Source of the DNA: Woeseiaceae bacterium
Lineage (GTDB): Bacteria > Pseudomonadota > Gammaproteobacteria > Steroidobacterales > Woeseiaceae
Length of the DNA: 64,000 bases
Direction: 5' to 3'
NCBI GenBank assembly: GCA_965224645.1
Contig: OZ245053.1
Span: 3,350,881-3,414,880, forward strand
The notes under the pieces are model-generated. The model was given only the letters and a program-made list of their open reading frames with translations, was not told the origin of the DNA and ran no database searches. Position 1 is the first letter of the stretch. Every line of letters starts with the position of its first letter. Of the stretch, positions 12,490 to 38,960 are shown piece after piece. The translations under genes were made by a program, and so were the position numbers.

Positions 12490-12739
12490 AGGTCGGGCCT
12501 TGGTGATCGGCGCTTCTGCATCGATGATGGCCAGAGCGCCGGGTTGAGACGTGGTTAAAAAAATAACCTAGGGGCTTCTGGAAGTAAAGGTGGAGCTCGC
12601 CGGCTCCCTTTGTATAGGGGTAATCTGTTCCCATAGGCCTTGCTGCGCAGGCTGTTTTCCGGTAAATAAAATATACATTCTGTTTCCACGGAAACGACCT
12701 TCTCAGCCAGCCCGATCCAGACGTCCCAAAGGCGAATGC

Positions 12740-14775: not shown

Positions 14776-14785
14776 GGTCGATCGT

Positions 14786-20522: not shown

Positions 20523-21752
20523 GTGACTATGAAAAATAAACAGCTTCGTGCTCTTTCGCTAATGTGCGCGCTGGCAGCACTGCTCTTAGGTTGCGGTCCT
20601 GCGCAGGACGAAGCCGCCGAAGACTCGCTTGCGCAAGCGCGGGCGTTGTTGCGGTCGACACCCTTAATCGATGGGCACAATGATCTGCCGTGGCTGATTC
20701 GTGAGGAGACTGGCGGCGATGTTCGGGCGTTTCGCCTTGAGACTGTGACCGAGTTCGACACAGACATTCCCAAGCTGCGTGAAGGACTCGTGGGGGCGCA
20801 ATTCTGGTCGGTCTGGATTCCTGGTGAAACGCCTGTAGCTGAACGAAAGAGCCTACAGCTGAAACAAATTGAAACTGCTCTTCGAATCATCGATACGCAT
20901 GCCGATACATTTGAGCTGGCGCTGACCGCTGCGGATATCGAGCGTGTATATGGCAGCGGCAAGATCGCGTCCCTGTTGGGCATGGAAGGCGGCTATGGCA
21001 TCAACAACTCGTTGGATGCGCTGCGTGAATATCATCGAATGGGCGTTCGATATATGACATTGACGCATAACGTAACCCTGGACTGGGCCGATGCGGCCCT
21101 TGGTGAACATCGTCATGGTGGGTTAACAGATTTCGGACGGGAAACCGTTAGGGAAATGAACCGGATCGGTATGATCGTTGATATAGCGCATACGTCGCGC
21201 GAAACGATGCAGCAGGTCATGGACACGTCGTCGGCGCCCGTGATCTGGTCGCATGCGGCGGCCGCTGGTCTGGTCGATCACCCTCGGAATGTGCCGGACA
21301 TTGTGCTGTCAGCACTGCCGGAGAACGGCGGTGTTGTAATGGTGACATTCATTCCCTCGTTCTTGTCCAATGACGTCTGGCAAATGCAGGAGAAAATCTG
21401 GGCAACGGACAAGCCCATAACCTCCATCCGGGATCTACGCGAGGTGTGGTTGGCCTACGACGCCGAGCACGGAGCGATTCGGGCATCGATCAATGATGTT
21501 GCGGATCATATTGAATACATCAGGGACGTCGCGGGAGTCGATCACGTAGGAATAGGCAGTGACTTCTGGGGAATGCCCGACATGCCGATTGGTCTCGAGG
21601 ACACGTCGAAGTTCCCCCACCTGTTCGCGCTGCTGATTGAACGCGGCTGGAGTGACGAGGACCTGCGCAAGTTGGCGGGAGAAAATCTGCTGCGCGTCAT
21701 GCGAGACGTCGAGTCAGTTGCCGAGATGTTGCAGTCGGAGTCCGGAGGCTAG
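20523..21752 (+). CDS. Membrane (renal-type) dipeptidase, peptidase family M19, lipoprotein
   Basis: The lipobox is ALLLGC. The M19 motifs are [24 protein letters not shown] and GIGSDFWG. Confidence 0.9.
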
Positions 21753-22087
21753 TCGCCCGCGCCCGCCACCGCGGAGAAGAACTTTTCGAACTTGTCATCG
21801 ATCCCTGCGTAATCGTCAGCATCGGCGGGCGGCGTCTTGCGAACGGTAATCACTGGCCATTCTTCGCTGTAAGTCGAGTTTAGCTGAAGCCAGCGCTCAG
21901 CCTCTTCCAGTGAGTCAGGTAGTATTGCTTCCTCGGGGCACTCCGCCTCGCAGACTCCGCAATCGATGCACTCGTAGGGGTTGATGACGAGCATGTTCGC
22001 TCCTTCGTGAAAGCAGTCAACAGGACATACCTCCACACACTCCATGTACTTGCAGCGGATGCAATGTTCCGTAACAACGTACGTCAC
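21749..22087 (-). CDS. fdxA: 7Fe ferredoxin (3Fe-4S + 4Fe-4S), FdxA type
   Basis: [29 protein letters not shown]...[16 protein letters not shown] is the classic Azotobacter-type ferredoxin I Cys pattern. Confidence 0.9.
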
Positions 22088-24294: not shown

Positions 24295-25229
24295 TGCCGC
24301 GGTAGACTCGAAGACCTGGGTTAGGTCCCGCTACACCGGACGGTTTGGTATAGCCTAGTTTCGTTTTTCTTTTCCTGTTCGAGTCTACTGCGCATCCGCG
24401 GATTGTAGAAGCTCTCGATGTAGTCAAAGATATCTGCTCGAGCTTCCGCTCGTGTTCGGTACTGACGTCGATTTACGCGCTCTCGTTTGAGCATGCCAAA
24501 GAACCCTTCGACGAGTGCGTTATCGGCGCAGCTGCCAACACCGCTCATGCTGCAGGTTACGTTGTGGCCTTGCAGGAAGCGTTGATACTCGACACTCGTG
24601 AACTGGCAGCCGCGATCGGAGTGCAGCACCAACGGCGACCGATCTTGTCGCTGCCAGAGCGCCATAAGCACCGCCTGAAGCACAAGCTGGCGATCCTGGA
24701 CAGCGCTCATCGACCAGCCGACGACCAATCGTGAGTACAGGTCGATGACCACGCACAGATACAACCAGTCCTCGGCGGTGCGAACGTAGGTGATGTCAGT
24801 CGCCCACTTTGTGTTCGCTTCCGAGGCTTCAAAGTCGCGATCCAGGTGGTTCTGTACGTGCGATGGTCGTGGCTGGCTGGCCTTCTTGCGCCAGCGTCGC
24901 TTCTGCGGGATGCCGTACAGACCGTCCAGCTTCATCAACCGACCGACGCGGTTAACGCTGGCTGTCTCGCCTTCATAGCGCAGATCCTCGTGGATGCGGC
25001 GCCGACCCAGGACACCGTCACTGGCCGCGTGGAGCTCGCGTATGCGAACCAGCAGCCTCTGGTTATCCAGGGCGCGCGCACTCGGTTCACGAGTGCGCCA
25101 CTCATAAAACCCACTGGCCGACACACCAAGACGCCGGCACATCATGCGAACTGGGAACGCGTCGCGGCACCGCTCGATCATGCGGTACTTCACTTCTGTT
25201 CTTTGGCGAAGAACGCAGCTGTAGATTCA
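24295..25229 (-). mobile_element. IS3-family element, 5'-truncated (orfA almost entirely lost); the left boundary is approximate
   Basis: It contains an intact orfB. Only the last 9 codons of orfA (AAFFAKEQK stop, minus strand 25227-25198) remain. They abut the IS30-type inverted repeat at 25230. Confidence 0.7.
24321..25193 (-). CDS. IS3-family transposase OrfB (DDE integrase core)
   Basis: 290 aa with WATDITYV, HSDRGCQFTS, DNALVEGFFGMLKRE and IFDYIESFYNPRMR, all hallmarks of the IS3 OrfB rve domain. Confidence 0.9.
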   Translation of the reverse strand: MKYRMIERCRDAFPVRMMCRRLGVSASGFYEWRTREPSARALDNQRLLVRIRELHAASDGVLGRRRIHEDLRYEGETASVNRVGRLMKLDGLYGIPQKRRWRKKASQPRPSHVQNHLDRDFEASEANTKWATDITYVRTAEDWLYLCVVIDLYSRLVVGWSMSAVQDRQLVLQAVLMALWQRQDRSPLVLHSDRGCQFTSVEYQRFLQGHNVTCSMSGVGSCADNALVEGFFGMLKRERVNRRQYRTRAEARADIFDYIESFYNPRMRSRLEQEKKNETRLYQTVRCSGT

Positions 25230-26254
25230 ATGGGTCAACGCAACACAAGATACTCAGATGCATACAACAGGAGATCTTGTAATGGCGAGACTAGGAAGGC
25301 CTGGTCTAACTGATGACCAGAAAGCTGAGCTTTGGGAACGCTGGCACAATGGCGAGGGTTACAGTGATATCGGACGAGCGATCGGCAAGTTCCCAGCGTC
25401 AGTCTTTGGGGTACTCAGGCTGTTCGGCGGATACGAGCCAGCGGCCCGAACCCGTTCAACCTCGCACCTCTCGCTCGCAGAGCGCGAGGAGATATCTCGA
25501 GGCCTAAGTGCCGGATACTCGATGAGAGAAATCGCTCAACAACTTAGGCGCTCGCCGTCGACGATCAGCCGCGAGATTGCGCGCAATGGAGGCTCTCGGC
25601 GGTACCGAGCGAACATCGCCGACGAGAAGGCTTGGGACCGCGCCCGGCGACCAAAGCTATGCCATCTAGCGCTGAACGGCTTCCTGCGGCGTATAGTCTC
25701 TTTGAAGCTGGCACAAGACTGGTCTCCAGAGCAGATCGCCGGCTGGCTCAAGCGCGGCTATCCTGATGACGAGACGATGCATGTGTCGTACGAAACGATC
25801 TACAAGAGCCTGTTCGTTCAGTCACGTGGCGTGCTGAAAAAGGAGCTCCAGAAGCATTTGAGGACCAAGCGACCGTTCCGACAGTCAAAGAAGCACAATA
25901 ACCGAGGTGCTCGTCGCGGTCAGATCATCGATGGTGTGCCGATCAGCGAACGGCCGGCGAGCATCGAGGATCGCGCAGTTCCCGGGCACTGGGAAGGCGA
26001 CCTTATAGCGGGGTCCGGCAACACCCACATCGCTACGCTTGTCGAACGGCAGTCGAGGTTCACGATGCTGGTGAAAGTAGATGGCAAGGACACCAAGACT
26101 GTCGTGGCCGCGCTATCTCGGCAAGTAAAGAAGCTGCCCAGTCAACTCCGCCAATCACTGACCTGGGATCGAGGAATGGAACTCGCCAACCATAAAGACT
26201 TCACGCTAGCGACCGACCTGCAGGTCTATTTTTGCGATCCTCAGAGTCCTTGGC
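25230..26254 (+). mobile_element. IS30-family element, 3'-truncated by IS21 insertion
   Basis: It starts with TGTAGATTCAATGGGTCAACGCAACAC, nearly identical to the IS30 left inverted repeat as I remember it. The transposase reading frame is broken at 26254, where the IS21 terminal repeat begins. No IS30 continuation follows the IS21 right end. Confidence 0.75.
25282..26254 (+). pseudogene. IS30-family transposase, C-terminally truncated
   Basis: MARLGRPGLTDDQKAELWERW..., then RSPSTISREIARN (HTH) and GHWEGDLI. The sequence ends at VYFCDPQSPW, where IS30 transposases normally continue. The last 7 codons of track ORF 25258..26277 are IS21 terminal-repeat sequence. Confidence 0.8.
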
Positions 26255-26359
26255 TGTTGATTTGCATCCAAAGTTGAGCCACTAAAGCGGATATTTGCAT
26301 CTAAAAATGACCCACGTGTAACCCTTCCCCTGCCGATGGACGGCGGGAGAGATTAAGGA

Positions 26360-27886
26360 GTGATAGACGTGGATTTATTGAGCGTAATTCGACGCTGGCA
26401 CGGCCGTGACAAGCTGTCGATACGAGAGATTGCGAGAAGAACGGGGCTGTCCCGCAACACCATCAGGAAGTACCTCGCCAACGGCGAGGTGACACCGAAG
26501 TACCCGGCGCGGAAGAGCGTCAGCAAGCGGGATCCGTACGCGGAGACCCTAGCGAGCTGGCTTAAGCGTGAGTCCAAGCGCAACAGGAAGCGCCGCCGTA
26601 ACCTGAAGCAGCTGCACCGGGATCTTGTGGCGCTGGGCTTTGACGGCTCCTACGACCGGGTCGCCGCCTTTGCCCGCGACCGGCGGCAACGCGAGCGCGA
26701 GCAAGCCAACCGGGCCAGTCGTGGCGCTTACGTGCCGCTGGCCTTCGAGCCGGGCGAGGCCTTTCAGTTCGACTGGAGCGAGGACTGGCTTCGCATCGGC
26801 AAGAAGAAGATTAAGCTGCAGATCGCCCACTTCAAGCTCTGCCACAGCAGGGCTTTCTTTCTGCGGGCCTACCTTACGCAGACGCACGAGATGCTGTTCG
26901 ATGCCCACAACCACGCGTTCCGCGTGTTGGGCGGCATTCCCGAGCGCGGCATCTACGACAACATGAAGACGGCGGTCGACAAGGTAGGCCGCGGCAAGAA
27001 GCGCCTAGTGAACGCGCGCTTCCGGGCCATGGTGAGCCACTACCTGTTCGAGTCGGAGTTCTGTAACCCGGCCGCCGGCTGGGAGAAGGGCCAGGTGGAG
27101 AAGAACGTCAGAGATGCTCGCCACCGCCTGCTGCAGGATGCTCCGGACTTTGCCGACCTTGCTGAGTGCAACGCCTGGCTGGAAGAGCGTTGCGTAGCGT
27201 TATGGTCAGAGACAGCCCACCCGGAACAGGGCAACCGCATGGTCGCCGAGGTCTACGAGGACGAACACAGCGCCCTGATGGCGATGCCGCCGGCCTTTGA
27301 CGGCTTTGTCGAGTGCAACAAGCGTGTCTCGCCGACCTGCCTCGTGGTGTTCGAGCGTAATCGCTACAGCGTGCCGGCGGCGTTCGCCAACCGGGTCGTT
27401 AGCCTGCGAGCCTATGCCAGCAAGATCGTGCTGGTCGCCGAGGCCGAGGTCATTGCCGAGCACGAGCGGGTCTTTAACCGCGACCACAACAGCAAGGGCA
27501 CCACGGTCTACGACTGGCGCCATTATCTGGCTGTCGTACAACGCAAGCCCGGAGCCCTGAGGAACGGCGCGCCGTTCGCCGAGTTGCCGAAGAGCTTCAA
27601 GCGCCTGCAGGCAGTGCTGATGAAGCGCGAAGGTGGCGATCGCGAGATGGCCGATATCCTGGCACTGGTGCTGCATCACGATGAGAAGCTCGTGGAGAAG
27701 GCGGTACGCGAGGCCATCCAGAGCGATGTCGTCTCCAAGACGCACATCATCAACCGGCTGAGCCGCTTACTCGATGCGCCGCCACCGGCGGCGCTTGAGC
27801 CACCGCCGGCACTCACCCTACGGGAAGATCCCGTTGCCAACACCGAGCGCTACGACAGCCTTAGGGGGATGAGCCATGTCTGCTGA
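26360..27886 (+). CDS. istA: IS21-family transposase IstA
   Basis: 508 aa with an N-terminal HTH ([21 protein letters not shown]) and an rve/DDE core. GTG start after AAGGAG. It overlaps istB by 11 nt. Confidence 0.9.
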
Positions 27887-28649
27887 AGCCGTTGTCACCA
27901 CGCTCAAGTCGATGAAGCTGCACGGCATGGCGAGCGCCGTGGCAGAGCTTGCCGAGCAGGGATCCCCTGCGTTCAAGCAGTCCGGCGAGCTCCTCGACAA
28001 GCTCATCAAGGCCGAGGTCGCCGAGCGTGAAGTGCGTTCCATCAACTACCAGATGAAGATCGCTAAGTTCCCGGCCCATCGGGACCTTGCAGGGTTCGAG
28101 TTCAAGGAAAGCACCGTCTCAGAAGGCCAGATCAAGGCGCTACATCGCTGCGAGTTCCTCGACGACACCGAGAACATCGTCCTGGTTGGCGGCCCCGGCA
28201 CTGGCAAGACGCACATCGCAACAGCGATCGGCGTCCAGGCCATCATCCATCACCACCGGCGAGTACGGTTCCTGTCGACCATCGAGCTGGTCAATGCCCT
28301 CGAGCAGGAGAAGCTCAACGGCAAGCAAGGCAGGCTCGCCAACCGCATGACGCACGTCGATCTTGTCATCCTCGATGAGCTCGGCTACCTGCCGTTCAGT
28401 CAGACAGGCGGCGCCTTGCTGTTCCACTTCCTCTCAAAGCTTTACGAGAAGACCAGCCTGGTCATCACCACCAACCTGAGCTTCGCGGAATGGCCAACGG
28501 TCTTTGGTGATGCCAAGCTGACGACTGCCTTGCTTGACCGACTGTCGCACCACTGCCACATCCTAGAGACCGGTAACGACAGTTACCGACTCAAGAACTC
28601 AACCAGCAATCAGAAGGAGACAAAAGCTAAGAAAAAGGGCAAAACCTGA
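27876..28649 (+). CDS. istB: IS21-family helper ATPase IstB
   Basis: 257 aa with Walker [10 protein letters not shown] and Walker [10 protein letters not shown] (AAA+ IstB/DnaC-like). Confidence 0.9.
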
Positions 28650-28984
28650 GCCATAATCAGGCCATCCGTGTGGGTCAATTTTCAGTGCAAATCCCGGGTC
28701 AATATTGGGTGCAAATCAACAGGCAGCCATTGATCTTCTACCTGCTTTGGAATGTCGTTGCCCCGAATTCTTTCGGGCTGGACAATCTGGGACTCTTTGA
28801 ATCAGTGGCAGTTTACGCGCTGATACGCGTCATCATCGATCCACCAAAGCTGCAAATTTCAATAGAGTGACAACGTGTGGAATCTCCGACCAGGGAACCG
28901 TGCAGATGACCATGCGTAGTTTTCAATAGGTGGATGCGTGCGCTAGCGTGAAATTCGGCGAAGTGCACCAATTCTGTTCTAGAT

Positions 28985-29014
28985 TGTTGATTTTCACCCA
29001 ATGTTGACCGGGGG
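28985..29014 (+). repeat. Solo, decayed IS21 right-end terminal repeat
   Basis: TGTTGATTTTCACCCAATGTTGACCGGGGG differs at about 4 of 30 positions from the reverse complement of the IS21 right end (TGTTGATTTGCACCCAATATTGACCCGGGA). Similarity fades after about 45 nt. Confidence 0.6.
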
Positions 29015-29157
29015 CGTGCAGGGCGCAGGAAACACTATGATCCGATGCTTCGAGCATTCCGAGCTTCAAGTACTATGAGAACTAGTCACCGATGCCCGTT
29101 CTTCGAAAACTTGTTTAGTGGACGATATGAAAGGGGCTAAAGATTGGAGAGGGAAAA

Positions 29158-29427
29158 GTGAACAAGAAATATGAAACGGAACGTGCGCGCCTGATCGAAA
29201 TATTGCGAGACGAATTTATTTTGTCTCGAGTCCAAGGTGGGTCTATACCTTGCGGACCAGATGACGTCGGACAATGCGAAATGTTCGACCAATCATGCCC
29301 AGCTGGAGAGGTGGAGTGTGGTAGCGGAAGCGCCGATTGCGTGATCACACGACCGATCGATGGGGGGACTGAAACAACACAAGGAATATGCTGCGTGGAG
29401 GGTTTCACTGCGCCAGAGGGTTGCTGA
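29158..29427 (+). CDS. Double-glycine-leader precursor peptide with an acidic 61-aa, 8-Cys core
   Basis: GGAGAGGG lies a few nt upstream of the GTG start. The leader VNKKYETERARLIEILRDEFILSRVQGG ends in GG, with V at -4 and L at -7. The core is SIPCGPDDVGQCEMFDQSCPAGEVECGSGSADCVITRPIDGGTETTQGICCVEGFTAPEGC. A C39-peptidase ABC exporter lies 1.6 kb downstream on the same strand. Confidence 0.7.
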   Translation: MNKKYETERARLIEILRDEFILSRVQGGSIPCGPDDVGQCEMFDQSCPAGEVECGSGSADCVITRPIDGGTETTQGICCVEGFTAPEGC

Positions 29428-29450
29428 TCTTAATTCAAAGTTGAGATGAT

Positions 29451-30479
29451 GTGGACCCTTTCGTTCCCGATGTGACTATTGATCTTCCCGCCGATTCGTT
29501 TCAAGAATCGGATGCATCGATATCACAAATCATAGGTGCTCTCGCGAGGCCGATTTCATTTGACACGCGCCGAAAAGTGTATTCTTTTCTTTCAAGGCAC
29601 CACGCCGACGACCCGATTGTCAACCTAGCATTACCGACAAGTACCTCGTATCCATGTTATGACCGCGAGATAGACGCCTACCTCAAAAGAGTGATTCGAA
29701 GTAACCGCTCGCGCAATGCCAGAGCGCATGCAACGTACTTAATGGCGGGCAACTACCTCGAATTGAGCGACTGTTTACTAATGGCCAACAATCTCGGCTC
29801 CAGTCCAGTCGAATTTGTTAAAGCTACAGTGCCTTCAAAGCAATTCGAAATTACAGGGCACATTGTAATGGAATCGTTAAGCTATTGGGCCCAAGTGGGT
29901 GCTACCAAACTGCGATCTGAGGCACGTAGGCTCGCGGAAGTATGCGTAAAAGAGTACCCGCGGTGTAAGAGATACAACTTGCGAAGCAATTACCCAGCAG
30001 ATCCAGATCGCTTGGAAACTCAGCTCCTGGGGACTGTAGCCTTGGAGGCAAGGTCTATTTTGGAGCGATTGGAGTCGTTTTCTGTTGGAGCTAGATTGAC
30101 CAAAATACTTGGATTGCTTGATGGCGAATTACAGATTGAATCAAAATTAGCTTCTCAATCGAACACCGTCATTGAATTTTGGCGAAGCGACTGCGGGCCT
30201 TGCACAAAGAAATTGCAAGATCTAGAAGATCTCGTGGTCAACTATGGCAATTTCGACGCTGAGATCAAAGCATTGAACATCGACCCAACAAGTGAACACT
30301 GGCGAAAATCGATGGCCAAACATGCACCGTCGATTAATGGAAGTTACTTTGGCGATAATGCGAGATTGATTCGGCTTTGGGGCATAACGGCGGTGCCGAA
30401 GATTGTCGTTTTAAAGCCCGACCTCACGATTCTTGCGATAGGTGCGCTTACGATTGATCAAATCAAACTCCTATCGTAG
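29451..30479 (+). CDS. Two-domain protein: unknown helical N-domain plus C-terminal TlpA/thioredoxin-like domain (CGPC)
   Basis: 342 aa. The C-terminal about 110 aa read NTVIEFWRSDCGPCTKKLQDLEDL...WGITAVPKIVVLKPD, a thioredoxin fold with a CxxC active site and cis-Pro region. No signal peptide is evident at the annotated GTG start. Confidence 0.7.
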   Translation: MDPFVPDVTIDLPADSFQESDASISQIIGALARPISFDTRRKVYSFLSRHHADDPIVNLALPTSTSYPCYDREIDAYLKRVIRSNRSRNARAHATYLMAGNYLELSDCLLMANNLGSSPVEFVKATVPSKQFEITGHIVMESLSYWAQVGATKLRSEARRLAEVCVKEYPRCKRYNLRSNYPADPDRLETQLLGTVALEARSILERLESFSVGARLTKILGLLDGELQIESKLASQSNTVIEFWRSDCGPCTKKLQDLEDLVVNYGNFDAEIKALNIDPTSEHWRKSMAKHAPSINGSYFGDNARLIRLWGITAVPKIVVLKPDLTILAIGALTIDQIKLLS

Positions 30480-30552
30480 TGGCAAGAGCCACGCAACATT
30501 CGTTATGACTAGTACTGCAATGGGCTGCCGCGAATTGTCGACCACATTTCAA

Positions 30553-31047
30553 ATGCATGACAAACCGACCTTCGATTTGGCGCCTCGGACAGCACCGTAT
30601 GTTGTCTTTTTCGTGCTCCTGTCTGGGTTCCTCTTTTCTTTCGGTGCCTCGAAGAGCATTAATGAAACATCTCGAATCGATCTCAAAACCATTGATAGCG
30701 GACCAAAGGCAGGCGAGCATCGTACCTTACGGGTATCCTATTTAGCCTGTTCTACACCGTCTATCAAAATCTGGTCTTCCGAGATTGATGAAATGTATAT
30801 TGAGGTTGATCAATGGCGAGCTCGAATTATCTTTTACGACCTAAAGTCCGCCAATGTGGTGAATGATGGACAGATTGAAGTAGATTTGGAATTGCTTATT
30901 GAGGGCCCGATTTCATCCGCCCAGGATTACCGACTGGCCGAGACCGGTACGTCGAGTGCCAGTCTTGTCTTCGCGTCCAAAGAAAAGTCGCTATTAAACA
31001 CCATCTTTGCAGGCTCGATGCGTTTCGCCAAACACAAAAACAAGTGA
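30553..31047 (+). CDS. Hypothetical single-pass membrane protein (start uncertain: 30442, 30505 or 30553)
   Basis: It has a hydrophobic helix APYVVFFVLLSGFLFSFGA followed by about 130 aa of beta-rich sequence with no motif I recognise. Its stop lies 1 nt before the exporter ATG, suggesting co-translation. Confidence 0.5.
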   Translation: MHDKPTFDLAPRTAPYVVFFVLLSGFLFSFGASKSINETSRIDLKTIDSGPKAGEHRTLRVSYLACSTPSIKIWSSEIDEMYIEVDQWRARIIFYDLKSANVVNDGQIEVDLELLIEGPISSAQDYRLAETGTSSASLVFASKEKSLLNTIFAGSMRFAKHKNK

Positions 31048-31048
31048 A

Positions 31049-33145
31049 ATGCCTTGGCAGTTTCGTAACATTGATTTCAAGAGACTACGCCTTTCAATTA
31101 GCGAGCAAAAAGGCGAATGCGGTCTTGCATGTTTAGAAATGATTGCAAACTATCACGGGCGCCGGATAGACAAACACGCTGCGAGAGCAAGCACCGATTG
31201 GAAGACACCATTATCTAGTTTTCTTGTGCTTGAAAAATGGGCGAGGAAGGCCGGTCTCGAACCAACCGCGTTGCGTTTCAGTGCTGGTGGTTTACGCTTT
31301 CTCCGTACGCCCTGCATTTTACATTGGTCTGGGGATCATTTTGTCGTCTTAAAGAAGGCGGGCCGATTTCAATCGACGATATACAATCCCAGCGGAAATA
31401 TACAAAGAGTAACTTCGTCAAGATTGGAGAGAATTTGCAGCGGGTTTGCAATGGAGTTCAGTTGCTGCATTGAATCGACGATCCCGGACGTAGTACGCCC
31501 GGCGAAGGTTCGCCTATTGGACCTTCTTCGGCAGACTGATGGAATCGGTTCAGCAATGTGGCAGACAACTGCTCTAGCATTACCGGTCCAAGTATGCGCG
31601 CTGCTGGCCCCTCTTTACCTGAAAATAGTGATCGATCGGGTCTTGCCCAACAAAGATACGGATCTGCTGTTTGTTGCTGCGATCGGCTTTGCAACAATTG
31701 CGGCGTTTCAAGTTATCACCTCAGTGTTTCGGACTTTGCTTATGCACGGGCTGAGCACTCAACTTAGTTATCGTCTTAATGCCGCTTTGTTTGGTCACGC
31801 ATTAAAGCTACCACTTGAATTTTTTCAGAAACGGCATCTGGGAGATATATTAAATCGGTTCGGGTCTCTTGAGCATGTAAAGGCATTTCTAACAGGAAAC
31901 TTTATTGTACTAGTGATCGATACAGTAATGTCCATTATCCTCATATGGTTCCTCTTCTATTACAGTGCGCAACTTGCATTTATTGTGGTTGCATTCATGA
32001 TCGCCGATGCTGGTGTACGTATGATGGTCTTCAGACCAATCCGACGAAGCACAGAGGAGTCTCTGGACGCAGCGGCGGTAGCAAGAACAAACATGATGGA
32101 GAGTATCCGCGCGATCAGTTGCATCAAGGTTTTCGGCCGTGAAACCGACCGCCATAACAGGTGGAAAGAGTTGAGTCACAAGCAGTATTCGTGCGATCTG
32201 CGCGTCACACAATTACAGACAATCACAAACGGCGCCAGGCATCTATTATCAAGTGTTGAGACCATTATTTTGGTGTTCGTCGGAGCCACGCTTACCATCG
32301 ATTCAACATTTTCAGCGGGCATGTTGTTGGCGTTCATTGCGTATAAGTCTCAGCTGACGTCCAGCGTGACTAGCGTCGTTGGAAAGATTGGGCAGTTCGC
32401 TTTTCTTCAGGTGCACCTGGCAAGGTTATCTGACATCTACTGCGCTCTTCCGGATCGAGCAGTCAACCATTCCCATCCCATTCAGGAAACCAATAAGCAG
32501 AGCCAATTGGATCTGTCGCAAGTTTCATACCGATATATTAATGGTGGCAATTGGGTCATACGGGACTTTTCAATGTCCGTGCGCAAAGGCGAAACCATAG
32601 CTTTGGTTGGCCCATCCGGTGCCGGAAAATCTACGATCATCGCAATCGCGCTCGGACTCATCCATCCGCAAGAAGGTCAAGTCTTGCTTGATGGTACGAG
32701 TCTATCAGACATTCCGCAGAGTACATTCCGAAAAACTGTCTCAGCTGTAAGTCAGGGAGATCCATTGCTAGTCGGGACTATCGCCGAAAATATCTCGTTC
32801 TTCGACAACCTTGTTGATCCGGAGATTGTTCGAACATGTGCGTCAGCTGCTGCGGTTCATGATGAAATCATGGCCTTACCAGATCAATACGATACACCGA
32901 TTAGTGATCTTGGAGACGGGTTATCTGGTGGACAGAAACAAAGAATATTGATCGCTCGAGCATTATATGCAAAACCGAAGATTCTGGTGTTTGATGAAGC
33001 GACCAACTCTGTAGATGCTGAAAATGAAATCCGTATCTTCAGTGAAATTTCAAATCTTGGTATTTCGGTTCTGTTTACTACTCATAGCGAGAGGTTATTG
33101 GCCTTCGCCGATCGGACCATAGTCATCCCATCAGTCGCAGCGTAG
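31049..33145 (+). CDS. Peptidase-containing ABC transporter (PCAT): C39 peptidase + 6-TM + ABC ATPase
   Basis: C39 catalytic Cys context QKGECGLACLEMIANYHG, with His in SGDHFVVL. The transmembrane domain is followed by Walker A GPSGAGKST, signature LSGGQKQR and Walker B ILVFDEAT. ATG 31049 is preferred over 31007. Confidence 0.9.
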   Translation: MPWQFRNIDFKRLRLSISEQKGECGLACLEMIANYHGRRIDKHAARASTDWKTPLSSFLVLEKWARKAGLEPTALRFSAGGLRFLRTPCILHWSGDHFVVLKKAGRFQSTIYNPSGNIQRVTSSRLERICSGFAMEFSCCIESTIPDVVRPAKVRLLDLLRQTDGIGSAMWQTTALALPVQVCALLAPLYLKIVIDRVLPNKDTDLLFVAAIGFATIAAFQVITSVFRTLLMHGLSTQLSYRLNAALFGHALKLPLEFFQKRHLGDILNRFGSLEHVKAFLTGNFIVLVIDTVMSIILIWFLFYYSAQLAFIVVAFMIADAGVRMMVFRPIRRSTEESLDAAAVARTNMMESIRAISCIKVFGRETDRHNRWKELSHKQYSCDLRVTQLQTITNGARHLLSSVETIILVFVGATLTIDSTFSAGMLLAFIAYKSQLTSSVTSVVGKIGQFAFLQVHLARLSDIYCALPDRAVNHSHPIQETNKQSQLDLSQVSYRYINGGNWVIRDFSMSVRKGETIALVGPSGAGKSTIIAIALGLIHPQEGQVLLDGTSLSDIPQSTFRKTVSAVSQGDPLLVGTIAENISFFDNLVDPEIVRTCASAAAVHDEIMALPDQYDTPISDLGDGLSGGQKQRILIARALYAKPKILVFDEATNSVDAENEIRIFSEISNLGISVLFTTHSERLLAFADRTIVIPSVAA

Positions 33146-33366
33146 AAGAAGTGGATCGGTTACACAGCTAAGTCGGCAGAGCAGAAGCACGATACGGCTA
33201 GAATGCCGAGTTTTCACCAGCGATGCTACACGAACAATGTTGGTCAAATGCGGTTTCTCGGAACGAAATGTTTGGATTCGTTTCCCGCTGAAGGATAAGA
33301 GGCAAGAAGTTATTAATGTAACTTCATTTCCAAACTAAATAGGTTGGATTAACAAGGGGTCTTGGT

Positions 33367-34293
33367 TTGCTAACACAAAAAACTGCACGCATTTTGCTCT
33401 CGAAATCAATTGCAATTGCAGTAGTTTTCGTAGTCATCGCTGGCCTGCTGCTAAGGAGCTTATCGGACAATGGAGACAGTCGAGAAAAATTCAAAAAAGT
33501 GCCGGCACTGTCAGCGCCAAATGACATCACGGCGCCGCAAACTGTGGAAGCAATAGAGCCGCCGTTGTCGGAGCGTGTTGCTGAATCAGAGGTTGAGAGA
33601 TTTCAAATTGAATTGCCCGAATATTCGGAGGGCTGTCTCCCAATTGAGGGGGCGATTACCGATGAGCGCCTACGTTTATATCAAGAGTTGCTGAGCGAAT
33701 CGATTCCAAAGGGATTTGAATACTCAGCGTACAGGAAAATGGAGACAAACGATCTTCGGGCATTCGTCATGCAGTCAGACTCGGCTGCCATGTACACTCT
33801 TGCCGCTAGATTATTGAACGAATCGGCGTGGTTAGAGGAAAGCCAAGAAGAAGTGGCGACACAAATGTCGGAGGCGTCTGAGTTAGCGTACGAAGCGGCA
33901 CTAAGGGGTAGGCTATTCGCTTTGTTCGGGTACGGCCGGGCTCTGACTCTCCAGGGGATTGGGCCAGTTAGCCTGGGATGGATCGATCAATCGACCTATG
34001 ATCAGCTTTCAGACGAAGATCGACGGGCACTGCGACCCGACAACATATACGGATATCTGGTATTTGATATTCTTCCCGAGCTTGTAATTCTAAATGACGG
34101 ACGTGCGTTACTAGACCGGCTAAATGACACCTCTGATCTCCAGATGGAGATTCGTCGAATGCTTAAACTCAGGTTCGAAAAAGACCTGTTGGCGCGGGAT
34201 CTCGCGTCACCAGTTGATAGGTATAGAGCACAAGACCCCGAAACCCAAAACACAATAGGTAATTATTGCGCGCACCCGAAATTGAAATCTTGA
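33367..34293 (+). CDS. Hypothetical membrane-anchored protein with helical-repeat ectodomain
   Basis: 308 aa with an N-terminal anchor IAIAVVFVVIAGLLL and an alpha-helical remainder (possibly Sel1/TPR-like, AAMYTLAARLL...AYEAALRG). It shares the AT-rich composition and strand of the exporter. It has no HlyD-like coiled-coil/lipoyl signature that I can see. Confidence 0.5.
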   Translation: MLTQKTARILLSKSIAIAVVFVVIAGLLLRSLSDNGDSREKFKKVPALSAPNDITAPQTVEAIEPPLSERVAESEVERFQIELPEYSEGCLPIEGAITDERLRLYQELLSESIPKGFEYSAYRKMETNDLRAFVMQSDSAAMYTLAARLLNESAWLEESQEEVATQMSEASELAYEAALRGRLFALFGYGRALTLQGIGPVSLGWIDQSTYDQLSDEDRRALRPDNIYGYLVFDILPELVILNDGRALLDRLNDTSDLQMEIRRMLKLRFEKDLLARDLASPVDRYRAQDPETQNTIGNYCAHPKLKS

Positions 34294-34544
34294 CTTGCCG
34301 AGCTTGCACGACGTGGGAAGCATTGAAAATGGCGTATCATCAGTGGCTTGGGGTACGAAAAACTAATCACTCCGCCCCGCGTCCCTGCTAGTTTTTCATC
34401 CGCGTTGATTGCATTGAGTTCTTGTCCGGTGCCTTTTAGCGTGATGGTATGATGTGGCTAGTGATTTACTTCTTTCCCGGTTTTCGAAGTTACGGGCTCT
34501 CCGCAACCTTGATCTTCTCCCAAAATTGGTGGTTAGCTGACACT

Positions 34545-34760
34545 GAGATGCCGACGCGGAAATCGCTGGGACAATGCGGTTGCTGATCCTTCTTTGGCGG
34601 CCTTCAAGAATGAACGATTCTAATAGCACAACTGCGAGAACCGCGATCTCGCGACGGACGATGTCTCAGATTATATCGAATCGTTCTACATCGAAAACGA
34701 AGGTATCTGCATCTTGGAGGTATTCGTCCGCAGGAGTTCGAGGCTACGGTTCCGAGTTTG
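34545..34760 (+). pseudogene. Remnant of an IS3-family OrfB 3' end (frameshifted)
   Basis: In shifting frames it reads RCRRGNRWDNAVADPSLAAFKNERF-stop, then DYIESFY, then RKRRYLHLGGIRPQEFEA. These correspond to the conserved GNCWDNAxAESFF and DYIExFYNxxRxHSxLGxxSPxxFE blocks. Confidence 0.55.
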
Positions 34761-34830
34761 CATTCGGGAATTTGGGTAAGAACGTCAGGCTACGCTATCC
34801 GAGCATCGATGCTAGTGTCAGAGCATGCTG

Positions 34831-35764
34831 TGTTGATTTGCACCCAATATTGACCCGGGATTTGCACTGAAAATTGACCCACACGGATGGCCTGATTATG
34901 GCTCAGGTTTTGCCCTTTTTCTTAGCTTTTGTCTCCTTCTGATTGCTGGTTGAGTTCTTGAGTCGGTAACTGTCGTTACCGGTCTCTAGGATGTGGCAGT
35001 GGTGCGACAGTCGGTCAAGCAAGGCAGTCGTCGGCTTGGCATCACCAAAGACCGTTGGCCATTCCGCGAAGCTCAGGTTGGTGGTGATGACCAGGCTGGT
35101 CTTCTCGTAAAGCTTTGAGAGGAAGTGGAACAGCAAGGCGCCGCCTGTCTGACTGAACGGCAGGTAGCCGAGCTCATCGAGGATGACAAGATCGACGTGC
35201 GTCATGCGGTTGGCGAGCCTGCCTTGCTTGCCGTTGAGCTTCTCCTGCTCGAGGGCATTGACCAGCTCGATGGTCGACAGGAACCGTACTCGCCGGTGGT
35301 GATGGATGATGGCCTGCTCACGCTCGCGTTGCCGCCAGTCGCGAGCAAAGGCCGCGACCCGACCGTAGGAGCCGTCAAAGCCCAGAGCAACAAGATCCCG
35401 GTGCAACTGCTTCAGGTTACGGCGGCGCTTCCTGTTGCGCTTCGACTCTCGCTTGAGCCGGCTCGCCAGCGTCTCCGCGTACGGATCCAGCTTGCTGACA
35501 CTCTTCCTGGCCGGGTACTTCGGTGTCACCTCGCCGTTGGCGAGGTACTTCCTGATGGTGTTGCGGGACAGCCCCGTTCTTCTCGCAATCTCTCGTATCG
35601 ACAGCTTGTCACGGCCGTGCCAGCGTCGAATTACGCTCAATAAATCCACGTCTATCACTCCTTAATCGCTCCTGCGGTCCATCAGCAGGAGGAAGGGTTA
35701 CGCGTGGGTCATTTTTAGATGCAAATATCCGCTTTAGTGGCCCAACTTTGGATGCAAATCAACA
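34831..35764 (-). mobile_element. Internally deleted IS21 derivative (934 bp) with both terminal repeats intact, inverted relative to the full copy
   Basis: It starts TGTTGATTTGCACCCAATATTGACCCGGG (the right-end repeat, reversed) and ends GGATGCAAATCAACA at 35764 (the left end, reversed). It is near-identical to 26255-28721 except for a roughly 1.53 kb internal deletion and scattered substitutions. Confidence 0.9.
34903..35658 (-). CDS. In-frame IstA(1-116)::IstB(C-terminal half) fusion ORF
   Basis: The first 116 aa equal the IstA N-terminus (HTH) with 4-5 substitutions. From [17 protein letters not shown] onward it equals the IstB C-terminal half. The junction lies at a shared Gln-Ala (EQA / VQA). 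Walker A is lost and Walker B is retained. Confidence 0.85.
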
Positions 35765-35845
35765 CAATAGCTCGCTGATGATTGCAGAACACTGCTTGCC
35801 TAGAATTGGCCACAACTAACTAGGCTCGATCGAGCACAAACTTCC

Positions 35846-36940
35846 TGTCCCTCCCATAAACTCGTCAGCCTTGATTTTTCTGGACTTTTTGCGATGAGCT
35901 ACTAGCTTTGGAGAATGAGCAAATGGCTATCGATTTTCTACAAGTACATTCTTTCAACCTTCAAAACGCATCGGGACTTGGCGTTTGAGAACCTGCTGCT
36001 TCGCCAGCAAGTCGCCGTTTATAAGCAAAGTACTTCTCGGCCCAAGCTGACTCCGGGAGATCGGTCGTTTTGGGCATTAGCATCGAGACTCTGGGCAGGC
36101 TGGCGAGACGTCGTACAAATTGTGAGCCCCGAAACGGTCGTACGATGGCATCGTGAGGGGTTTCGTCGACATTGGGCGCGCAAGTGCCGAAAGCAAGGCC
36201 GACCGCAGATAGATAAAAGGATCCGGTTGCTCATTCGGCAAATGTGCATGGCGAATCCGCTTTGGGGAGCACCCCGAATTCATGGGGAGCTCTTGAAGCT
36301 GGGCATCGAGGTGTCCGAGTCGGTGGTTTCCAAGTACATGATTCGACAGCCGAAGCCGCCATCTCAAGGTTGGCGCACTTTCCTCGACAATCATGCGAGG
36401 GACATCATCGCCACAGACTTCTTCCCCGTCCCGACGGCGACCTTTCGGGTGCTGTTCGTACTGGTAGTTCTCAGCCACGATCGGCGGAAGATTTTGCACA
36501 CGAACGTAACCGAGCACCCGAATGAAGAATGGACAGCCAGACAGATCATCGAGGCATTCGGAGTAGATAGCACGCCGAGATTTCTCGTTCGCGATCGCGA
36601 TCGGAAATTCAGCGCATTCGTAAGTCGACGATTGGCGTCGGCGGGGTTGACGGAAGTTGTAACGGCGCCGGCCTCGCCCTGGCAGAATGCCTACGCGGAG
36701 CGTGTCATTGGTACGATCGGGCGGGATTGTTTGGACCACATGATCATTCTGGGTGAGCAGCACCTGCGAAGAACGGTCAAGCGATATGCCAACTATTACA
36801 ACAATGTACGCACGCACCTGTCATTGGAAAAGAACTCGCCGAACGGGCGGCTCATTCATTTCCCGAAGCAGGGCAGTATTCGCTCGCGCGAGCATTGTGG
36901 CGGATTACATCACGAGTACTTCCGGCAGGCCGCGTAGACA
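35846..36940 (+). mobile_element. IS481-like element copy 1 (left IR present, right IR missing)
   Basis: The left end TGTCCCTCCCATAAACTC is homologous to the left end of copy 2 at 59598. Sequence diverges from the other copies immediately after the transposase stop, so no right inverted repeat is present. Confidence 0.65.
35915..36937 (+). CDS. DDE transposase, integrase-core (rve) type, IS481-like
   Basis: 340 aa. It contains PLWGAPRIHGELLKLG (HTH), DIIATDFF, LVRDRDRKF, SPWQNAYAERVIGT and YYNNVRTHLSL. It is roughly three-quarters identical, by eye, to ORF 59668..60690. Confidence 0.85.
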   Translation: MSKWLSIFYKYILSTFKTHRDLAFENLLLRQQVAVYKQSTSRPKLTPGDRSFWALASRLWAGWRDVVQIVSPETVVRWHREGFRRHWARKCRKQGRPQIDKRIRLLIRQMCMANPLWGAPRIHGELLKLGIEVSESVVSKYMIRQPKPPSQGWRTFLDNHARDIIATDFFPVPTATFRVLFVLVVLSHDRRKILHTNVTEHPNEEWTARQIIEAFGVDSTPRFLVRDRDRKFSAFVSRRLASAGLTEVVTAPASPWQNAYAERVIGTIGRDCLDHMIILGEQHLRRTVKRYANYYNNVRTHLSLEKNSPNGRLIHFPKQGSIRSREHCGGLHHEYFRQAA

Positions 36941-37000
36941 AGGGTTCGGAAAGAGAAATATGACCTTGAATACATATGCATTCTATGGCATATTCTGGCG

Positions 37001-37354
37001 ATGACTTGGGAAGTGGAGTTCGAGGGCGAGTTTGAGGCTGAGTTCGACGAATTCACAGACCCGGTTAAGACAGAGCTTTTGGCAAGGGCGAAAGTCTTGG
37101 CGCAGTTTGGGCCGATGCTTGGCAGACCCAATGTCGATACTCTGAATGGTTCGGAGCATGCGAACATGAAGGAGCTTCGGTTCACTGCGGATGGTGGCGT
37201 TTGGCGGGTCGCATTTGCATTCGATCCTGAGCGTAAAGCCATTCTGCTTTGCGGTGGGGATAAGGAGGGTAAGGATCAGAAGCGGTTCTACAAGGACCTG
37301 ATCCGTCTCGCCGACGGGCGTTTCAAGAGTCACCTGGAACGCCTAAAGAAATAG
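37001..37354 (+). CDS. RelE/ParE-superfamily toxin, Gp49/DUF891 (HigB-like) type
   Basis: 117 aa. LRFTADGGVWRVAFAFDPERKAILLCGGDKEGKDQKRFYKDLIRLADGRF is typical of Gp49-like addiction-module killers. An HTH antitoxin ORF follows 12 nt downstream. Confidence 0.75.
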   Translation: MTWEVEFEGEFEAEFDEFTDPVKTELLARAKVLAQFGPMLGRPNVDTLNGSEHANMKELRFTADGGVWRVAFAFDPERKAILLCGGDKEGKDQKRFYKDLIRLADGRFKSHLERLKK

Positions 37355-37366
37355 AGAGGTATTGTT

Positions 37367-37702
37367 ATGGGAACTTCACTACAGCAGAAGATTGAGCAAC
37401 TGCCACCGAAGCAGAAGGCAGAGGTTGAAGCTCGCGCCGATGAGTTGATTCTCGAGGAGCTGTCATTGCGTGCCCTCAGGAAGGGGCTCAAGCGAACACA
37501 AGTTGAAGTCGCGAAAGCGTTGGGGACTGGTCAGGACACGGTGTCTCGCCTGGAGAGTCGCTGCAATATGATGGTGTCGACGCTTGATCGGTACGTCAAG
37601 GCGATTGGTGGTGAAGTTTCTATTGTCGCCGAGTTCCCAGATCGACCACCGGTCAAGTTGACGTTTGAAGGCATGTCAAAGGATCTCGAAACAGCAAAAT
37701 AG
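37367..37702 (+). CDS. XRE-family HTH antitoxin (HigA-like)
   Basis: 111 aa with LRKGLKRTQVEVAKALGTGQDTVSRLES (HTH_3). Toxin-first order is typical of higBA modules. Confidence 0.75.
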   Translation: MGTSLQQKIEQLPPKQKAEVEARADELILEELSLRALRKGLKRTQVEVAKALGTGQDTVSRLESRCNMMVSTLDRYVKAIGGEVSIVAEFPDRPPVKLTFEGMSKDLETAK

Positions 37703-37822
37703 CCTCTAGACTGTTGCCGACAAAATTCCGACACAAGCTGTGCATTGTTGTGCAACGTACTGAAAGTTGGTCAACGAGCGCCGTCTTTTAGGCCTTATTT
37801 TTCAGTAAGTTACAGCGCGCTG

Positions 37823-37872
37823 ACTGGCTACGAACCAGGCGGTCGGGAGTTCGAATCTCTCCGGGCGCGCCA
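37823..37872 (+). tRNA. 3' fragment (about 50 nt) of tRNA-Arg(ACG); not a functional tRNA gene
   Basis: ACTGG-CTACGAA-CCAGG-CGGTC-GGGAG-TTCGAAT-CTCTC-CGGGCGC-G-CCA. These parts are the anticodon arm with ACG, the variable loop, the T arm, the 3' acceptor strand, the discriminator and CCA. It closely parallels E. coli tRNA-Arg(ACG) from memory. No D-arm or GCGCCCG 5' acceptor strand lies upstream. Confidence 0.75.
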
Positions 37873-37916
37873 ATCCGATCAAGGGTTTACAGTTTTTCTG
37901 TAGACCCTTTTTCTTT

Positions 37917-38960
37917 CTAGCGTAGAGAAATCGTAGAGTTGTTCTCTACGATTTCCAGCTCCCGCTCGATTCGAGACGCCGCATCCGACAAATGCTCCGG
38001 TGCCAAGTGCGCATACCGAAGTACCATCTCGTACGACTTCCAACCACCTAACTCCATGAGCTCCTGCAAACCGGTGCCGGCCATCACATGCCAGCTTGCC
38101 CAGGTGTGCCTAAGATCGTGGAACCGAAACTTCTCGATCCCGGCACGTAAGAGCGCCCGTTTCCAGGCAGAGCCCACCGCTTCCATGCGTCTCCCCTGAT
38201 ACGTGAAACACCATTGTTCGTGTTGGCCGTAAGTGGCTTTCAACGCCAGTAGTGCATCCCGGTTCAGGGGAATGCCGCGGCTGTCTCCGGTCTTGGTGGT
38301 GCCCGCATCCAGCCAGGCCACACGCCGATCGAAGTCGACACGACTCCATTCCATCTGCAGGATTTCTCGCATCCTGCAGCCGGTCGCCAGGGCAAATCGC
38401 ACCACCGGTACGAGGTGCCCGGGCAGTTCCTCCAGCAGTCGATCCGCTTCCTCTTTCTTGAGAAAACGGACGCGACGTTTGGGTTCTTTGAGCATGCGTA
38501 TCTTGGGGATACGCGTGACCCATTCCCACTCGTCGCGCGCCATGTGGAGAATACGCCGGACGATCTCGAGAGCGCGGTTGACGGTGGCGTTCTTGACACC
38601 ATCCACCTTCTTTCGATCCTGGATGAACGGCCTCAGGACATTCATATTGATGTCCTTCAGCCGGCATCCACGAAGATACGGATCGAGCTTGGCTAGGTGA
38701 TCCTTGTCGTCTCTCAGACTTCGCTTCTCGGCGTTGTCTTCGAGATAACGCAGGACTGCCTGCTGCCAGTTGTGCTCGGCCGGTATCCCGGTCCGGGCCG
38801 CCTCCACGGCGTCCGCTTTGAGGCGTATCAGATACTCTTCAGCGTCCTTCAGGATCGTAAGTCGAGTGCTCTTGCATACTCGGCGTCCGTCCGGGAGGAC
38901 AACGTCGATCCACCAATACGGCGAATCTTTCCTTCTGTAGAGTCCTTTTTCTCGGGCCAT
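37917..38960 (-). CDS. Tyrosine-type site-specific integrase (phage/island integrase)
   Basis: 347 aa. The N-terminus MAREKGLYRRKDSPYWWIDV is typical. The catalytic residues are ATGCRMREIL (Arg), HDLRHTWAS (HxxR) and GGWKSYEMVLRYAHL (Tyr). It sits 45 nt from the tRNA-Arg fragment. Confidence 0.9.
   Translation of the reverse strand: MAREKGLYRRKDSPYWWIDVVLPDGRRVCKSTRLTILKDAEEYLIRLKADAVEAARTGIPAEHNWQQAVLRYLEDNAEKRSLRDDKDHLAKLDPYLRGCRLKDINMNVLRPFIQDRKKVDGVKNATVNRALEIVRRILHMARDEWEWVTRIPKIRMLKEPKRRVRFLKKEEADRLLEELPGHLVPVVRFALATGCRMREILQMEWSRVDFDRRVAWLDAGTTKTGDSRGIPLNRDALLALKATYGQHEQWCFTYQGRRMEAVGSAWKRALLRAGIEKFRFHDLRHTWASWHVMAGTGLQELMELGGWKSYEMVLRYAHLAPEHLSDAASRIERELEIVENNSTISLR

Follow-up and report, generated by a model that had tools for sequence, protein, structure and literature searches.

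Gene content of the cassette

The window (the whole 64-kb stretch of DNA that was analysed) contained a 6.1-kb cassette at 28722-34830 with five genes, encoding a Cys-rich peptide, a thioredoxin-fold protein, a small membrane protein, a PCAT exporter and a membrane-anchored protein (Table 1). The GC content of the cassette was 46-49%, against 55-60% for the genome, and inverted IS21-family copies bracketed it, the left one complete and the right one internally deleted. A 486-nt arm of the right-hand IS21 copy was 100% complementary to 28236-28721, and the Pfam IstB_IS21 match of this copy covered profile positions 116-236 only. Further IS elements, a Gp49/HTH pair and a tyrosine integrase were found beyond the cassette. 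On sequence grounds, the 6.1-kb cassette is proposed to be mobile cargo. Promoter and terminator scans gave background levels, and there were no Rfam or PADLOC matches.

Table 1. Features of the cassette, its flanks and one L001 counterpart. Positions are those of the window except in the last row.
Feature	Position	Strand	Description
IS21-family element (istA + istB), left bracket	26230..28721	+	Pfam IstB_IS21 5.8e-82, Mu-transpos_C_2; inverted-repeat arms I1-I3
Shine-Dalgarno-like sequence GGAGAGGG	29146..29153	+	Read from sequence; followed by AAAA, GTG start 4 nt on
Peptide ORF	29158..29427	+	GTG start 29158, stop codon 29425-29427, 89 codons
Leader, residues 1-28 (MNKKYETERARLIEILRDEFILSRVQGG)	29158..29241	+	Predicted cleavage after Gly28
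Core, 61 aa + stop codon	29242..29427	+	8 Cys, mass 6.13 kDa, no Pfam/NCBIfam/PDB match
342-aa two-domain protein	29451..30479	+	N-terminal ~210 aa helical; C-terminal ResA/DsbE/TlpA-type thioredoxin fold, CGPC
Small membrane protein, <=201 aa (start uncertain)	30442..31047	+	One TM helix, residues 50-73
PCAT exporter, 698 aa	31049..33145	+	C39 peptidase, ABC transmembrane domain, ATPase
308-aa protein	33367..34293	+	N-terminal TM anchor (segment 5-35), predicted periplasmic domain
Internally deleted, inverted IS21 copy, right bracket	34831..35789	-	istA N-terminus fused to istB C-terminus
L001 counterpart of the small membrane protein, 179 aa	L001 7185-7724	-	Overlaps PCAT start

Homologue and sister locus

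Exhaustive searching of 1.84e9 representative proteins with phmmer yielded a single real relative, the 84-aa P0002 (E 3.5e-6; pairwise E 5e-17). The other matches (P0001, P0003 and P0004) were repetitive unrelated proteins and were discarded. A word-indexed search of 5.8e9 protein clusters with the peptide gave no match, and no contig record came up when the exact sequences of the peptide, the thioredoxin-like protein and the PCAT were looked up. No further relative was found when back-translated DNA scans were made with the peptide alignment against genome_contigs, metagenome_contigs and viral_contigs. Scans of genome_contigs and viral_contigs with the thioredoxin-like protein, and tblastn against PLSDB plasmids, likewise found none. 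The peptide family comprises two members, with correspondingly thin conservation statistics.

P0002 is encoded on a 139.8-kb metagenome contig (L001), which held the same five-gene set. All five ORFs were intact at both loci. The genes were divergently arranged in L001 and all in one direction in the window; the set was therefore kept while order and orientation were not, a pattern that points to linked functions and not to inherited synteny. The L001 cassette, too, was lower in GC than its surroundings (45-50% against 53-60%), and it adjoined an IS3-type transposase.

Coding evidence for the peptide gene

The 89-codon ORF with a ribosome-binding site before its GTG start, as described in the first-pass annotation, was present at the locus, and in L001 TGGGGGGT was found upstream of the ATG start of the homologous gene. 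Nucleotide identity between the two peptide genes was 0.61, 0.59 and 0.38 at codon positions 1, 2 and 3, and different codons were used at 20 of the 35 identical residues. The third-position bias of the differences, together with the codon changes, indicates purifying selection in the + frame and speaks decisively against the antisense ORF. The 64-kb window contains 538 stop-free stretches of 60 aa or more, and among these the density of Cys and acidic residues in the peptide was matched only by a genuine 4Fe-4S ferredoxin.

The exact peptide sequence was not found in a collection of 15 billion proteins. Two neighbours on the same 3.70-Mb NCBI/ENA contig (P0006 and P0007) were present in this collection, so the peptide was evidently never called as a gene in its own genome. 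The absence could also be read as a sign of a chance open frame, or of an antisense ORF (29115-29408, 97 aa, which does exist) as the real gene. That explanation is considered extremely improbable, as the homologue keeps the Cys residues, the leader and the synteny, the divergence at third codon positions falls in the + frame, and a strong RBS-like sequence lies upstream at both loci. By the evidence of the two sequences, the peptide ORF is a real, previously un-called gene. It is more solid than a lone ORF because the second locus confirms the system.

Core peptide

The composition of the 61-aa core was as the first-pass annotation had counted it (8 Cys, 11 Asp/Glu, one Arg and no Lys). The calculated net charge was approximately -10.6, the pI 4.05 and the mass 6131.7. 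The Cys residues were spaced C-x7-C-x6-C-x6-C-x6-C-x16-CC-x9-C. This spacing is not that of a ferredoxin-like or metallothionein-like peptide, and both readings were rejected. The core matched nothing in Pfam, NCBIfam or PDB sequences, also when the peptide was searched as a profile against the PDB sequences; the AlphaFold model of the whole peptide had a pLDDT of 54, too low for folds to be compared. The 8 Cys would allow four disulfides at most.

P0002 contains 10 Cys, which matched all 8 Cys of the window peptide. The two proteins also had in common a C-terminal AP(E/D)GC, CGP and CP.GEV.CGSG. The core of P0002 carried a charge of approximately -10 and had no Lys or Arg. Conservation of the Gly-Gly site and the Cys pattern at a homologous locus, by which the first-pass annotation proposed to judge its reading, was thus observed, with GG aligned to GA and 8/8 Cys kept.

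Leader

Residues 1-28 had been described as a canonical double-glycine leader, forming an amphipathic helix that ends in Gly-Gly, with V at -4 and L at -7. The Gly-Gly and these two residues were borne out; residues 3-26 were modelled as a helix by AlphaFold at low confidence. The Gly-Gly (residues 27-28) aligned with GA in P0002. PCAT cleavage follows GG, GA or GS (PMC12457901). Leader positions -4, -7, -9, -11, -13, -16, -17, -20, -23 and -24 were alike in the peptide and P0002; position -4 was V or I and position -7 was L in both, which fits the PCAT rule (PMC12457901). Leader length was 28-29 aa in the two members, and an N-terminal NK.YE..R..L was kept.

Position -12, normally hydrophobic, was Arg in the window peptide and Glu in P0002, and the hydrophobic residues were instead at -9, -13, -16 and -17. 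The cargo leaders beside the closest PCAT relatives were 15-18 aa long and of the form ...ELxxVxGG. No leader model in Pfam or NCBIfam matched the peptide leader. Given the charged -12, the length of 28 aa and the missing leader-model match, the term canonical is too strong for this leader. A PCAT group reading positions -9 and -14 was recently described (PMC12457901), so there is precedent for shifts of leader position.

PCAT exporter and C39 domain

Pfam assigned Peptidase_C39 (4.6e-19), ABC_membrane (1.7e-38) and ABC_tran (3.3e-31) domains to the PCAT. It was 43% identical to the L001 PCAT, and all other PCATs recovered were at most 38% identical. The two nearest of these were inspected and had an ordinary layout, with a membrane-fusion protein of 399-419 aa and a short cargo carrying a textbook leader (MNEIRELSVEELELVGGG..., MRELTSSELEAVSGG...). 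The peptide had been taken for the cargo of the PCAT at 31049. Its sole homologue adjoins a PCAT of its own, the relative at 43% identity, and it is very probable that the window peptide is carried by the exporter next to it.

The C39 domain aligned to LahT150 (PDB 6mpz). The catalytic Cys and His were present, in ECGLAC and DHFVVL, when aligned with LahT150 and 11 relatives. At the sixth residue before the catalytic Cys, 107 of the 109 nearest PCATs in which the motif could be recognised have Gln, taken here to be the oxyanion-hole residue of papain-like/C39 peptidases; this position was Ser in both the window and the L001 PCATs. The triad Asp was present in 100/102 relatives and in the L001 PCAT, and was Asn in the window PCAT. 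Judged from these residues, proteolysis by the window C39 domain could be weak or atypical, and for that reason cleavage after the Gly-Gly is given as a prediction only.

Accessory proteins

The 342-aa protein matched Pfam AhpC-TSA and Thioredoxin_8 in its C-terminal ~130 residues. PDB profile matches to ResA (4nmu, E 1.4e-11) and DsbE (3gl3) covered profile positions 213-334. Its L001 orthologue (349 aa, E 3e-19) has CRPC in place of CGPC, and the active-site stretches read FWRSDCGPC in the window and FWATNCRPC in L001. A 19-residue Kyte-Doolittle scan found no N-terminal hydrophobic segment in either orthologue, and no signal peptide or TM helix was detected in the window protein. Unlike typical ResA/TlpA/DsbE-type members, the 342-aa protein therefore appears from its sequence to be cytoplasmic. 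As it has no export signal, it would be unable to oxidise the peptide in the periplasm, as known bacteriocin accessory oxidoreductases supposedly do. The N-terminal ~210 residues matched no Pfam, NCBIfam or PDB profile. With the model of the protein (pLDDT 48), Foldseek gave no match with E <= 0.001, and the N-domain gave only generic helical-repeat matches.

The small TM ORF directly precedes the PCAT gene, where a membrane-fusion protein gene would usually lie. In the window it had no family match and no HlyD match (Pfam, NCBIfam). The 179-aa ORF at the same place in L001 matched TIGR01843 at positions 323-408 of 422 (E 3e-6) and aligned to residues 5-63 and 367-409 of a 419-aa membrane-fusion protein. 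It has in common with HlyD/CvaA-type proteins the cytoplasmic N-terminus, the TM helix and the C-terminal beta-barrel/membrane-proximal segment; it differs from them in that ~230-300 central residues (lipoyl domain and coiled-coil hairpin) are missing. By this alignment, the L001 ORF is a membrane-fusion protein lacking the lipoyl domain and the hairpin. Direct similarity between the two small ORFs was undetectable, only position and topology being alike, and the window counterpart would have diverged beyond detection. A full-length membrane-fusion protein was absent from both cassettes, in which only single-TM ORFs of 160-200 aa were found. The export proposal thus offers no route across the outer membrane, which counts against it.

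The 308-aa protein had an orthologue in the L001 cassette (E 2e-18), and two Cys (C90 and C301) were invariant in the family alignment. A scan with this protein gave 7 metagenome loci, which were chromosomal paralogues without the cassette, in unrelated contexts in marine metagenomes. A resemblance of the family to Sel1 repeats was insignificant (E 1.4), and that identity was rejected. No small multi-TM immunity ORF was adjacent to the peptide gene. The single-TM ORFs at 30442-31047 and 33367-34293 could be putative immunity proteins.

Comparison with known systems

The peptide showed no similarity to described families in Pfam, NCBIfam, the 5.8e9-cluster search or phmmer against 1.84e9 proteins, and known systems were compared by gene content and peptide properties. 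Class IIa microcins have a mature peptide of 5-10 kDa, a GG leader, a PCAT and disulfides only (PMC10233263; PMC12219008). Class IIa microcins (MccV/colicin V, MccL and MccN) and the class II microcin-like peptides that are widespread among Gram-negative bacteria likewise have a double-glycine leader and an adjacent proteobacterial CvaB/RaxB-type PCAT, and class IIa microcins are also often anionic and often on mobile DNA (PMC10233263; PMC12219008). The predicted core of 6.13 kDa is within the class IIa range of 5-10 kDa (PMC10233263), and no modifying-enzyme domain was found. The peptide differs from class IIa microcins in having 8 Cys and a charge of approximately -10, where the microcins have 0-4 Cys and a modest charge. 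The cassette also lacks a full-length CvaA/HlyD-type membrane-fusion protein and an adjacent small multi-TM immunity gene, and adds the thioredoxin-fold and 308-aa proteins. The 28-aa leader with a charged -12 and the C39 domain without the conserved Gln are further differences.

Because most microcins are neutral or anionic (PMC10233263), the first-pass annotation went too far in holding that charge and Cys content do not match known bacteriocins and microcins; the combination of 8 Cys with a charge near -10 is nevertheless extreme.

The bacteroidetocin unit (proposed class IIf, Bacteroidetes) brings together a GG Cys peptide, a membrane protein, a PCAT and a thiol oxidoreductase on which activity depends; a membrane-fusion protein gene is not among its four genes (PMC6671954). 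All four kinds of gene are present here and are kept at two loci. Bacteroidetocins as described are set apart by a 15-aa leader, a 42-aa core and 4 Cys, compared with 28 aa, 61 aa and 8 Cys. The membrane partner has five TM helices in bacteroidetocins and one here, and the oxidoreductase of the cassette consists of a helical domain joined to a ResA/TlpA-type domain, with no signal peptide. The window host is also not a member of the Bacteroidetes, judging by its TonB-dependent receptors, ~58% GC and Proteobacteria as the closest named relatives of the PCAT.

Glycocin clusters encode a PCAT, one or two thioredoxin-like proteins and precursors with up to 7-8 Cys and nested disulfides (PMC12457901). 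The redox part of the Firmicutes glycocin/sublancin clusters (sunA-sunT-bdbA-sunS-bdbB, gcc, thg and org) resembles that of the cassette. The differences from glycocins are the Gram-negative host, the lack of sequence similarity and an acidic core rather than the helix-loop-helix glycocin fold. A glycocin was ruled out, as no cassette ORF of the window or L001 was a SunS/GccA-type glycosyltransferase. A lanthipeptide was set aside in the same way; no LanB/LanC/LanM, radical SAM, YcaO or similar maturase, as expected of a lanthipeptide or other enzyme-modified RiPP, was found in 28722-34830 or in the L001 cassette.

The peptide is best read as a secreted, disulfide-rich product of PCAT processing, probably served by its own thiol-disulfide helper, and similar to class IIa microcins, to bacteroidetocins and to the redox part of glycocin clusters. 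The first-pass annotation had suggested that the product could be a new class. The sequence family is new and its accessory set unusual; novelty of class is undemonstrated, and there are precedents for a Cys-rich GG peptide with a PCAT and a thiol oxidoreductase (PMC6671954, PMC12457901). The finding is a very rare new peptide family with an unusual accessory set, within a known kind of secretion system, and not a demonstrated new class. A toxin, a metal binder and a signal, the three products that had been suggested, cannot be told apart from sequence.

Proposed mechanism and alternatives

In the proposed mechanism, the peptide gene would give rise to the precursor of a disulfide-rich mini-protein. 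The 342-aa CxxC protein, presumably co-transcribed, would be its dedicated thiol-disulfide helper; since this protein appears to be cytoplasmic, it would most likely keep the Cys-rich precursor reduced and export-competent, and its helical N-domain possibly holds the long leader. The C39 domain would cut after Gly27-Gly28, and the ABC part would pump the 61-residue acidic core over the inner membrane. Once the core is outside the cytoplasm, its 8 Cys would pair into as many as four disulfides. A candidate for a reduced membrane-fusion protein is the small TM protein encoded just before the PCAT, and the 308-aa anchored periplasmic protein may serve in immunity or as an accessory. If class IIa microcins and bacteroidetocins are a guide, the role would most likely be antagonism against competitors. 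That the precursor is held reduced, cleaved by the PCAT, exported and oxidised, and acts as a bacteriocin- or microcin-like antagonist encoded on a mobile cassette, is considered moderately probable.

The C39 domain of a PCAT reads roughly 15 leader residues. In the peptide, the conserved leader N-terminus (NK.YE..R..L) extends past this length, and the 28-aa leader exceeds the 15-18 aa of unmodified-cargo leaders. The peptide might thus be a true RiPP precursor, with the leader bound by the N-domain of the 342-aa protein, which would act as a modifying enzyme on the Cys residues in the cytoplasm before export by the PCAT. Thioether or other crosslinks, or defined disulfides, would be the candidate modifications, and the apparently cytoplasmic thioredoxin-fold protein with its conserved ~210-aa domain would suit such a role. 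This is judged unlikely, as LanB/C/M, radical SAM, YcaO, MNIO and glycosyltransferase domains are found in no cassette protein, the N-domain model is of low confidence and resembles only generic helical repeats, and thiol-disulfide exchange is the simplest role for a CxxC thioredoxin fold. Low probability is also given to a function other than that of a toxin, in which the peptide would bind metal, buffer redox state or serve as a signal, either in the periplasm or beyond the producer cell. The hairpin of membrane-fusion proteins is thought to dock the outer-membrane channel, and a hairpin-less protein would agree with the peptide being released to the periplasm instead of the medium. The conserved extreme acidity with 8-10 Cys, an anchored periplasmic partner with two invariant Cys and the lack of an obvious immunity gene in the cassette are consistent with this function. 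It is opposed by the x6-x7 Cys spacing, which lacks the CxC/CxxC clusters typical of metallothioneins, and by the lack of His-rich motifs. The cassette also has no sensor kinase or regulator, which a quorum peptide would need, and carriage on a mobile cassette is typical of bacteriocins.

The changes from Gln to Ser at -6 and from Asp to Asn in the window C39 domain, a membrane-fusion protein reduced to 160-200 aa and the IS-dense surroundings could instead mark a decaying remnant, with a truncated membrane-fusion protein, a damaged C39 site and flanking IS elements, from which the peptide is no longer processed or exported. The Ser at -6, the mini-membrane-fusion protein and the signal-less thioredoxin-fold protein recur, however, in L001, where the proteins are 20-43% identical to those of the window. 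Oddities common to two loci so far diverged are taken to be old and maintained. With five intact ORFs at each locus and a peptide under purifying selection, decay is considered very unlikely. A further proposal, given a low probability, is that the cassette represents a distinct type of PCAT system, and not one more microcin, for a four-disulfide mini-protein with a charge of about -10. The cytoplasmic 342-aa partner would read the leader and set the redox or crosslink state, the Gln-less C39 domain would process the precursor, and the hairpin-less mini-membrane-fusion protein would deliver the product to the periplasm and not via TolC. The product would there work with the 308-aa protein, for example in metal/redox handling or envelope signalling.

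Significance

If the peptide is made and exported in line with the favoured reading of a PCAT-processed secreted peptide, it would found a new family of PCAT cargo, extreme in charge and Cys density. Two copies were found in approximately 15 billion proteins, and gene callers missed the peptide in its own genome. The C39 domain without Gln, the membrane-fusion protein without a hairpin and the signal-less TlpA-like fusion would test the rules by which Gram-negative PCAT cargo is recognised, cut and delivered. The compact 6-kb mobile cassette is a possible source of a disulfide-stabilised antibacterial or metal-binding scaffold.

Peptide gene annotation and composition control

The acidic, eight-cysteine peptide encoded at 29158-29427 was absent from a collection of 15 billion proteins that does include the products of genes flanking it on its 3.70-Mb genome contig. 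The peptide gene is therefore uncalled in public annotation. Elsewhere in the window, the sole stretch that is likewise Cys-rich and acidic is the 4Fe-4S ferredoxin, which was used as the internal control in the composition test.

Exporter components

The C39 domains of the peptidase-containing ABC exporters (PCATs) were delimited in the window and in the sister locus on metagenome contig L001 (see table). Of 109 close relatives, 107 carry Gln six residues ahead of the catalytic Cys; in both cassette PCATs this position is Ser. The triad Asp is replaced by Asn in the window PCAT.

The mini membrane-fusion protein (mini-MFP) ORF of L001, called at 125 aa, has a true size of 179 aa. Its product comprises an HlyD/CvaA-type N-terminal transmembrane part and a C-terminal segment only, and differs from HlyD/CvaA-type MFPs in lacking the central ~230 to 300 residues. 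An ORF occupies the same position in the window, yet MFP identity could not be recognized from its sequence.

The 308-aa protein family

The anchored protein of 308 aa is a member of an uncharacterized family with two invariant Cys residues and a (Q)GD(S/T)AAM motif; its likeness to Sel1 was not significant (E 1.4). Outside the cassette, family members lie in core-genome contexts, either adjoining homocysteine S-methyltransferase and MttB-like genes or flanked by gpsA on one side and a tRNA methyltransferase-like gene on the other.

Mobile elements and IS21 brackets

The surroundings of the cassette (24321-26277 and 35915-38960) form a mobile-element graveyard. No tRNA genes were found within the 64-kb window. 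Near the sister locus, L001 carries ParB, RecA/Rad51-like, ThiF-like E1, Prok-E2 and Prok_Ub genes (12701-20255), which may be part of a mobile element.

The cassette is bracketed by two IS21-family copies in inverted orientation. The right copy carries an internal deletion, by which the N-terminal part of istA has become joined to the C-terminal part of istB. Because the terminal 486 nt of both copies are 100% identical, the arrangement is suggestive of a recent composite-transposon-like structure.

Coordinates of features in the window and in metagenome loci (L001, sister locus; L002, L004, L006 and L008, loci with paralogues of the 308-aa protein)
Feature	Location	Strand
4Fe-4S ferredoxin, 112 aa, DUF3470 C-terminus	window 21749-22087	minus
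IS3-type transposase	window 24321-25193	minus
IS30-type transposase	window 25258-26277	
IS21-family copy, left bracket	window 26230-28721	
Positional counterpart of mini-MFP	window 30442-31047	
C39 domain, window PCAT	window 31049-31540	
308-aa anchored protein	window 33367-34293	
IS21-family copy, right bracket	window 34831-35789	
rve_3 transposase	window 35915-36937	
Gp49-like/HTH pair, toxin-antitoxin-like	window 37001-37702	
Tyrosine integrase	window 37917-38960	minus
C39 domain, L001 PCAT	L001 6700-7188	
Mini-MFP ORF	L001 7185-7724	minus
308-aa family member	L002 7983-8921	
308-aa family member	L004 7743-8654	
308-aa family member	L006 6566-7528	
308-aa family member	L008 1715-2680
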